Shown: one piece after another, positions 36,982 through 38,874 of the stretch | Layout of the letters: the number at the start of each line of letters is the position of its first letter | Position numbering within the stretch: position 1 is the first letter of the stretch | Assembly (NCBI RefSeq): GCF_055900595.2 | Contig: NZ_CM148325.1 | Direction: 5' to 3' (one strand) | Length of the DNA: 64,000 nt | Made by a program: the position numbers and the translations under genes | The notes under the pieces: model-generated | Database searches by the model: none | The model's input: the letters and a program-made list of their open reading frames with translations, nothing else | Told to the model about the DNA's origin: nothing

Positions 36982-38874
36982 TTACATCACCAGACGGCGA
37001 ATGTCAGACAGCGTGTTGTTAATGATGGTAATGAAACGGGCACCATCAGCACCGTCGATCACGCGGTGGTCGAAGGAGAGAGAAATCGGCAGCATCAGAC
37101 GCGGCACGAACTCTTTACCATTCCACACCGGTTCCATCGCGGACTTGGAAACACCGAGGATAGCCACTTCCGGCGCGTTCACAATCGGCGCGAAGTGGGT
37201 AGTACCCAGGCCGCCGATGCTGGAAATGGTGAAGCAACCGCCCTGCATTTCGCCCGCAGTCAGCTTACCGTCACGCGCTTTCTTAGAAATGGTCATCAGT
37301 TCGCGAGACAGCTCGATGATGCCTTTCTTGTTGACGTCTTTGAATACCGGAACAACCAGACCGTTCGGGGTATCCACCGCCACACCGATGTTGATGTATT
37401 TCTTCAGGGTCAGACGCTGACCGTCTTCCGACAGAGAACTGTTGAAGCGAGGCATCTGCTCAAGTGCCGCAGCAACGGCTTTCATGATGAAGACAACTGG
37501 GGTTATCTTCACATCCAGCTTACGTTTCGCTGCTTCTTCGTTCTGCTGTTTACGGAACGCTTCCAGCTCAGTGATATCGGTTTTGTCGAAGTGAGTAACA
37601 TGCGGGATCATCACCCAGTTACGGCTCAGGTTCGCACCAGAGATTTTCTGGATGCGGCCCAGTTCCACTTCTTCGATTTCACCAAACTTGCTGAAGTCCA
37701 CCTTCGGCCACGGCAGCATGCCAGGGATACCGCCGCCAGTTGCCGCCGGAGCCGCTTCTGCACGTTTGATCGCTTCTTTCACGTAAGCCTGAACGTCTTC
37801 GCGCAGGATACGACCTTTACGGCCAGTGCCCTTCACTTTCGCCAGGTTAACGCCAAATTCGCGTGCCAGACGGCGGATCAGCGGAGTCGCGTGAACGTAA
37901 GCGTCGTTTTCAGCAAATTCAGATTTGCCTTCTGCTTTTGCAGCCGGTGCTGCTGCCGGAGCTTCAGCTTTTGCTGCCGGAGCCGGCGCTGCCGCTTCCT
38001 GTTTCGCAGGAGCTGCCGCAGGCGCTGCGCCTTCAACTTCGAAGATCATAATCAGCGAGCCAGTTTTCACTTTATCGCCAACGTTGACTTTCAGTTCCTT
38101 CACGACGCCTGCAAACGGAGCCGGAACTTCCATAGACGCTTTATCGCCTTCTACGGTGATCAGTGACTGTTCAGCGGCAACTTTGTCGCCCACTTTCACC
38201 ATCACTTCGGTCACTTCAACTTCGTCACCACCGATATCCGGAACGTTAACCTCTTTCACGCCAGCTGCTGGTGCAGGGGCCGCTGCCGGAGCCGCTTCCT
38301 GTTTAGCCGCCGGAGCTGCCGCGCCTGCTTCACCCGCGACTTCGAAGACCATAATCAGCGAGCCGGTAGACACTTTGTCACCCACGTTCACTTTGATCTC
38401 TTTCACGGTGCCTGCAAACGGAGCCGGAACTTCCATAGAAGCCTTGTCGCCTTCTACGGTGATCAGCGACTGTTCAGCTTCAACTTTGTCGCCCACTTTC
38501 ACCAGGATTTCGGTCACTTCGACTTCGTCGCTGCCGATATCCGGAACATTTACGTCTTTTGCCGCCGCAGCAGCGGGTGCTGCTGCCGGAGCTGCTTCTT
38601 TCTTCTCTTCTGCCTGAGCAGGTGCAGCGTCTGCTGCACCGTCGGCGGAATCGAAAATCATAATCAGTGCGCCGGTCTGGGTTTTATCGCCAACAGAGAC
38701 TTTGATCTCTTTAACGATACCCGCCTGCGGAGACGGAACTTCCATAGAGGCTTTGTCGCCTTCTACAGTGATCAGCGACTGTTCGGCTTCAACTTTGTCG
38801 CCCACTTTGACCAGGATCTCGGTGATTTCAACTTCATCAGCCCCGATGTCCGGTACTTTGATTTCGATAGCCAT
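36982..38874 (-). CDS. aceF: Pyruvate dehydrogenase E2, dihydrolipoyllysine-residue acetyltransferase
   Basis: 630 aa with three N-terminal lipoyl domains ([10 protein letters not shown] x3), Ala/Pro-rich linkers and the catalytic C-terminal motif DHRVIDGA. Confidence 0.95.
37990..38874 (-). repeat. About 300-bp coding repeat present three times in tandem (the lipoyl domains of aceF)
   Basis: Near-identical stretches visible in the nucleotide sequence, for example 38048-38250 versus 38350-38555. Confidence 0.8.

Follow-up and report, generated by a model that had tools for sequence, protein, structure and literature searches.

The three lipoyl-domain units of an Escherichia coli aceF gene: protein constraint, probable episodic exchange between lip2 and lip3, and rare domain-number variants

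How much of the likeness between the tandem lipoyl-domain units of aceF is due to exchange of DNA between them, and how much to the protein that they encode? Each lipoyl domain acts as a swinging arm, ferrying acetyl groups among the active sites of E1, E2 and E3 in the pyruvate dehydrogenase complex. The question is raised by a stretch of 64,000 nt from an E. coli chromosome (contig NZ_CM148325.1), referred to here as the window, for which a sequence-only reading had proposed three units kept at high nucleotide identity by ongoing gene conversion, and prone to the gain or loss of domains.

The gene carrying the repeat is the E. coli pyruvate dehydrogenase E2 gene, aceF, and the repeat occupies its 5′ third (Table 1). 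The translated product is the same as K-12 AceF at all 630 of 630 residues, is matched by PDB 7b9k_A across residues 1–630, and scores 1101.5 bits with the NCBIfam equivalog PRK11854 (cut-off 722) and 1041.6 bits with TIGR01348 (cut-off 552). Three PF00364 domains, one PF02817 and one PF00198 are found by Pfam. The catalytic core contains the sequence DHRVIDG and matches PDB 4n72, while lip3 matches 1qjo and 2k7v, the solved innermost lipoyl domain. The ORF list gives the gene order pdhR-aceE-aceF-lpd, all on the minus strand of an E. coli-type chromosome, and related E. coli records are annotated with the same context. The motif GDKASMEVP, with the lipoyl-lysine in DKA, places the three lysines at residues 41, 144 and 245; given the identity to the biochemically characterised K-12 protein, these are expected to be lipoylated and the enzyme to transfer acetyl groups. 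AceF is described as bearing three redundant lipoylated swinging arms on a 24-mer E2 core (PMC8421416), and the same article credits the aceF sequence to Stephens et al. (1983) and, on the domains being redundant, cites Guest et al. (1985) and Allen et al. (1989). The triplicated repeat is an ordinary feature of this gene, already known and textbook material since the sequence was published in 1983, and its earlier description as a known property of E2 is correct.

Table 1. Position of aceF, its neighbours and its parts within the window.
Feature	Position	Strand	Remarks
PdhR-like ORF	41713–42510	minus, as aceF	ORF list
AceE ORF	38889–41552	minus, as aceF	ORF list
aceF	36982–38874	minus	ORF list, Pfam, NCBIfam, PDB match
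Lpd ORF	35233–36690	minus, as aceF	ORF list
lip1 unit, in frame	38563–38871	minus	309 nt
lip2 unit, in frame	38260–38562	minus	303 nt
lip3 unit, in frame	37957–38259	minus	303 nt
lip1 core, residues 4–76	38647–38865	minus	K41 codon 38752–38754
linker 1, Ala/Pro-rich	38557–38646	minus	translation
lip2 core, residues 107–179	38338–38556	minus	K144 codon 38443–38445
linker 2, Ala/Pro-rich	38254–38337	minus	
lip3 core, residues 208–280	38035–38253	minus	K245 codon 38140–38142
linker 3, Ala/Pro-rich	37900–38034	minus	ends at about 37900
Peripheral-subunit-binding domain, residues 327–362	37789–37896	minus	PF02817; outside repeat
Catalytic acetyltransferase core, residues 399–629	36988–37680	minus	PF00198, PDB 4n72; outside repeat
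30-nt exact run, lip2 copy (codes 10 residues)	38410–38439	minus	lip3 copy at 38107–38136

Two long plus-strand ORFs lie antisense to aceF, at 37925–38617 (230 aa) and 36937–38166 (409 aa), with no gene support. Both arise from the Ala-rich, GC-rich repeat, and the first is an antisense reading of it and not a gene. Depending on the E. coli strain, the spacer between aceF and lpd is either about 325 nt or about 208 nt long (compared were loci L089, L093–L095 and L099–L100 with loci L090–L092 and L096–L098); going by the annotated coordinates of aceF and lpd in K-12, that strain would carry the long form. Downstream of lpd, on the plus strand, is an ORF for a DUF3300/YacH-like protein of 619 aa (33302–35161) with a His/Asp run, HHDHHHHDDDDHHNHNDD, and a tandem repeat of its own at 34823–35058 (102 nt, 2.3 copies, 83% matches) coding for a Gln/Arg-rich unit of 34 residues.

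Tandem Repeats Finder reports the aceF repeat at 38039–38853, with a period of 303, 2.7 copies, 79% matches and a score of 882. Three 300-nt copies, spaced by 303 and 309 nt, are found by a repeat finder, two of them being 78% and 67% identical, without gaps, to the reference copy. This far exceeds chance. Each in-frame unit codes for one PF00364 lipoyl domain of about 80 residues followed by an Ala/Pro linker, confirming the three tandem units of about 300 bp that had been proposed; the span first given to them, 37990–38874, is essentially right, 38874 being the start codon of aceF, but 37990 sits within linker 3. Linker 3 carries short tandem repeats with periods of 33 nt (37929–37998) and 12 nt (38005–38028). 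The cores can be aligned without gaps over 231 units from 77 genomes.

The DNA identity of the units was compared with a null that held the protein fixed and drew each codon anew, with codon frequencies taken from aceE, lpd and aceF outside the repeat, both being computed on gapless 78-codon cores. The cores of lip1 and lip2 are 76.1% identical (expected 72.4%, z = 1.95), those of lip1 and lip3 74.4% (expected 70.8%, z = 1.93), and those of lip2 and lip3 83.8% (expected 76.2%, z = 3.90). Only lip2/lip3 shows a clear excess, over a null that ignores position-specific codon preferences. Exact common runs reach 30 nt between lip2 and lip3, 23 nt between lip1 and lip2 and 19 nt between lip1 and lip3, and the linkers are less alike between units than the cores. 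The claim of units highly similar at the DNA level holds only in part, and "high nucleotide identity" overstates a similarity that is only moderate. An identity no higher than that expected from protein constraint is nearly what is found for lip1, and not for lip2/lip3.

As a calibration, the similarity among the three units is mostly as protein constraint and codon bias predict, and for the most part it would follow from strong purifying selection on the encoded sequence and from the pronounced codon bias that goes with high expression. Selection on the conserved fold, codon bias and possibly position-specific codon preferences could be taken to explain all of the similarity, with no recombination at all. 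The lip1 pairs, which exceed expectation by only about 3.6 percentage points, agree with such a reading; the excess of lip2/lip3 does not.

Synonymous divergence sets lip2 and lip3 apart in the same way. Within this genome, dS is 0.79 between lip1 and lip2, 0.91 between lip1 and lip3 and 0.50 between lip2 and lip3, the last being lower than the dS of either unit to its own orthologue in Salmonella (lip2 0.59, lip3 0.65) and lower than that of paralogues compared across species (0.71–0.90), which argues against explaining everything by constraint. Sites were further classed as concerted, where both copies share one state here and another in other species, or as orthologous, where the state follows orthology. 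Against Salmonella the counts of concerted and orthologous sites are 0/23 for lip1/2, 1/25 for lip1/3 and 8/6 for lip2/3, small samples drawn from 73 codons per core; against K. oxytoca lip2/3 gives 12/2 (Fisher tests on the site counts, p = 8e-5 and 1e-6). An example is KVNVGDKV, found in both lip2 and lip3 of E. coli, where both Salmonella copies read KISTGDKV. Across ten genus comparisons the lip2/lip3 pair has 6–12 concerted and 2–9 orthologous sites, and concerted sites equal or outnumber orthologous ones in every comparison but that with Citrobacter R56 (7/9). The lip1 pairs have 0–4 and 17–29, a clean orthology that is as expected without recombination. By this test lip2 and lip3 have evolved in concert and lip1 has not.

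Codon choice shows a similar difference. Over 76 species, the fraction of same codons within a genome exceeds that across species by 0.10 for lip2/3 and by 0.03 to 0.05 for the lip1 pairs, which control for codon usage peculiar to each species (Wilcoxon, p = 2e-6 and 2e-9). In this genome lip2 and lip3 use the same codon at a fraction of 0.742 of positions, compared with 0.593 across species (maximum 0.706). Cross-species lip2/lip3 paralogues have 0.59 of their codons in common where 0.51 is expected, so part of the lip2/lip3 excess may not be due to recombination. Depending on the species, lip2 and lip3 are between 73.5% and 95% identical, and in some lineages exact runs reach 98 nt; this genome, at 85.4%, is mid-range. 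Lineages at 92–95% have exact runs of 59–98 nt and lineage-specific residues common to both copies, a pattern that runs counter to constraint acting alone.

Within E. coli the picture is different. Comparison of this genome with a second E. coli gave 0 concerted and 23 orthologous sites, and lip2/lip3 dS is 0.50 whether the paralogues are taken from one strain or from two. Nor is there homogenisation of lip2/lip3 since the split from E. albertii, as cross comparisons between E. coli and E. albertii give the same values as those within a genome. At sites in lip2 and lip3 that differ between this genome and K-12, one allele usually equals the paralogue; these were not counted as conversion, because two-codon toggling under codon bias predicts that very pattern. 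The lack of homogenisation within E. coli would suit an explanation without recombination, but the lip2/lip3 excess, the dS values, the concerted sites and the strongly homogenised lineages make that explanation improbable. Since homogenisation is absent both within E. coli and since the E. albertii split, nothing shows conversion acting in this genome, and the earlier claim of ongoing gene conversion is not supported here; lip1 has no part in the concerted evolution.

The between-genus comparisons instead support a history in which lip2 and lip3, and not lip1, would have swapped sequence episodically on that time scale. The homogenisation seems to be old, later than the Escherichia/Salmonella split and earlier than that between E. 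coli and E. albertii. It would have proceeded by episodic homologous recombination between the two units, with lip1 evolving independently of them, whether through non-reciprocal gene conversion, through cycles of unequal crossing-over or through both. Among the papers that could be searched, none dealt with conversion or recombination between lipoyl domains.

Cycles of unequal crossing-over, in which a unit is lost to leave a two-domain hybrid and three units are restored by re-duplication, could homogenise lip2 and lip3 with no need for gene conversion. Hybrid intermediates of this kind, with two domains and a lip2/3 hybrid, are found in complete genomes; four-domain alleles exist with a lip3/lip2 hybrid unit and exact duplications of 303 nt; and in highly homogenised species the high identity extends over the entire core and some way into the flanking linker. 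In this genome, in Salmonella and in Siccibacter, however, lip2/lip3 identity is patchy (73–100% per 30-nt window) and the linkers remain dissimilar and differ in length, so that short conversion tracts fit better than cycles of crossing-over. Two-domain species are also lacking among 77 Enterobacterales. Crossing-over cycles as the sole means of homogenisation are rather unlikely.

Domain number was compared between species. A scan of species-representative genomes gave 80 Enterobacterales loci, 77 of them with a full-length aceF, and all 77 encode three lipoyl domains. Total length varies from 622 to 670 aa, the differences being due to linker variation. In E. albertii (L002, a match of 1599 nt) and in Dickeya (L078), tblastn gave short matches that resembled two-domain genes, a reading that was rejected because the ORF runs off the start of the locus, the stored sequence having been cut inside aceF (5′-truncated). 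Natural loss of one or two lipoyl domains is described for the AceF of Serratia symbiotica (PMC5013485), and in-vitro deletion constructs indicate that one lipoyl domain is enough for activity (Guest et al. 1985, as cited in PMC5013485).

Strains of E. coli are less uniform. When 5,423 complete E. coli genomes were searched with the DNA of a two-domain allele, 16 records deviated and 5,407 were canonical; inspection of a subset of the deviating records places two-domain alleles in at least 8 of the 5,423, with at least four different crossover points. The query, a lip2/lip3 crossover, is matched end to end in C2, C4, Rb-50 and VTB97379v, and the hybrid was confirmed in the sequence of the first three. 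DSM 103263 and FDAARGOS_1283 have lost lip2 via linker 1/linker 2 crossovers, and 01_3327 and 03_3013 carry a lip1/2 hybrid. In 01_3327 (L099, 1604–3184) the two-domain aceF is called a pseudogene by PGAP ("incomplete; missing N-terminus"); it is in fact intact, with 527 codons, a normal ATG and an open frame. The proposal that the region is prone to recombinational gain or loss is upheld to the extent that two-domain alleles occur in complete genomes, but they are rare. A simpler argument, that deletions do not exist since 80% or more of a three-unit query is covered in each complete E. coli genome, proved misleading because BLAST pieces may reuse one stretch of a record.

Crossovers within cores map to nt 90–141 and 408–461 of the gene, on different haplotypes, in a near-invariant stretch of 17 residues where exact runs are longest; the 30-nt lip2/lip3 run falls in the interval of the lip2/lip3 crossovers of natural two- and four-domain alleles. 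A different rearrangement occurs in strains 463, 447, 439 and 446, which represent one clone: an out-of-register, in-frame deletion of 192 nt in aceF fuses lip2 at its C-terminal VGDKV to lip3 at its N-terminal VGDKV (strain 463, L081, 3087–4787). The deletion appears to exploit the internal two-fold pseudo-repeat of the lipoyl domain, and would leave an abnormal product of one and a half domains in which two lipoylation motifs are present.

From the K-12 protein, the ten likeliest products of in-register deletion were written out and looked up as exact sequences in a protein collection, and all ten were present. The 529-aa lip2/3 hybrid occurs on 182 contigs, complete chromosomes among them, the 527-aa lip1/2 hybrid on 454, mostly short, and the 426-aa one-domain form on 38; counts from drafts and metagenomes are not to be read as frequencies. 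One of the predicted hybrids is the Shigella boydii protein ABB64837.1, from a chromosome that was reportedly Sanger-sequenced. One-domain alleles come from draft and metagenome assemblies, and a one-domain query found no such allele in the 5,423 complete E. coli genomes.

Gains are also seen. In a protein search about 40 AceF sequences of 723–738 aa ranked above the canonical form. In the E. coli examples the extra unit is a lip3/lip2 or a lip2/lip1 hybrid, and several have strain-specific substitutions that occur in each of the duplicated copies. The DNA of the duplicated segments is exactly the same over 308–356 nt in two assemblies and has diverged in a third. Apart from those of two Salmonella chromosomes, CP006575.1 and CP075029.1, the four-domain alleles all come from draft or metagenome assemblies, and the four-domain query found no such allele in the 5,423 complete E. 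coli genomes. Some of them may be assembly artefacts. The four-domain ENA proteins P0002, P0010, P0015 and P0025 combine E. coli segments with segments of other genera; they are probable metagenome chimeras and were not used as evidence.

Could all alleles with one, two or four domains be artefacts, produced by mis-joins or loops at shared k-mers, in a region that is not recombination-prone in nature? The core crossovers do map to the longest exact runs in common, and the runs shared at crossovers (30–53 nt) are where small-k de Bruijn assemblers could mis-join. The lip1/2 hybrid protein is mostly on contigs of 2–10 kb, largely from metagenomes, several four-domain ENA proteins join E. coli-like segments to segments of other genera, and the absence of one- and four-domain alleles from complete E. 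coli genomes is as an artefact would have it. The two-domain alleles, however, come from different laboratories and different haplotypes (differing from the K-12-derived hybrid at 0 to 24 positions), two of those in complete genomes have their crossovers in linkers, one is in the S. boydii chromosome carrying ABB64837.1, and the same 192-nt out-of-register deletion was recovered from a clone sequenced four times. A wholly artefactual origin therefore deserves little credence. It can be argued that at least part of the variation in aceF domain number is real, because of the alleles in complete genomes, the linker crossovers and the S. boydii allele. In practical terms, aceF is a site of possible mis-joins in short-read and metagenome assemblies.

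The same recombination that may have homogenised lip2 and lip3, starting mostly in the near-invariant 17-residue stretch or in linkers, would occasionally give rise to alleles with one, two or four domains. As the variant alleles stay rare, selection evidently maintains three domains. Domain loss that is kept rare in natural isolates agrees with selection favouring three swinging arms. Lower growth rate and yield with fewer lipoyl domains were reportedly found by Dave, Guest and Attwood (1995). A bolder proposal, which we hold only tentatively and as somewhat short of probable, is that lipoyl-domain number in enterobacterial AceF is a naturally segregating copy-number polymorphism, with alleles of one, two and four domains among wild E. 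coli, Shigella and Salmonella, that would arise by recurrent unequal recombination at a lipoylation-motif hotspot and whose cycles of loss and gain would homogenise lip2 and lip3. If so, certain niches might tolerate or favour some variant alleles, for instance those of S. boydii or of host-restricted Salmonella. The account that we prefer, and consider very likely correct, combines protein constraint and codon bias with episodic recombination between lip2 and lip3, an independent lip1, and rare domain-number variants.

The aceF allele of the window differs from that of K-12 (L082) at 47 of 1893 nt (97.5% DNA identity), and the differences are evenly spread and all synonymous, as would result from purifying selection. 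Its haplotype is uncommon, only 12 of 5,424 E. coli records being at least 99% identical, the best of them Z0117EC0005 (99.9%). Among other strains the linkers vary in length: an in-frame deletion of 12 nt (AAPA) in linker 3 is present in some E. coli strains, one of 24 nt in linker 2 in strain N31, and a 3-nt deletion in linker 1 in P0118.

The lip2/lip3 pair resembles classical cases of concerted evolution of tandem intragenic repeats in that paralogues are more alike within a genome than across species and have lineage-specific states in common. Unlike those cases, the effect in aceF is confined to two of the three units, is episodic, and is absent within E. coli; it is also weak by comparison, the two units still being 15% diverged. 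K-12 aceF has a 32-nt exact run between lip1 and lip2 that is broken here by a substitution at position 108 of the gene. Otherwise K-12 AceF has the same domain order, with three lipoyl domains and their Ala/Pro linkers followed by the peripheral-subunit-binding domain and the catalytic core, and the same operon context, pdhR-aceE-aceF-lpd. The Serratia symbiotica proteins and the in-vitro deletions show that this repeat architecture permits the in-frame removal of whole domains, and the natural E. coli and Shigella alleles of 527–530 aa and 426 aa fit the predicted in-register hybrids. Unlike these reduced-domain systems, the genome studied here has the canonical three-domain allele.
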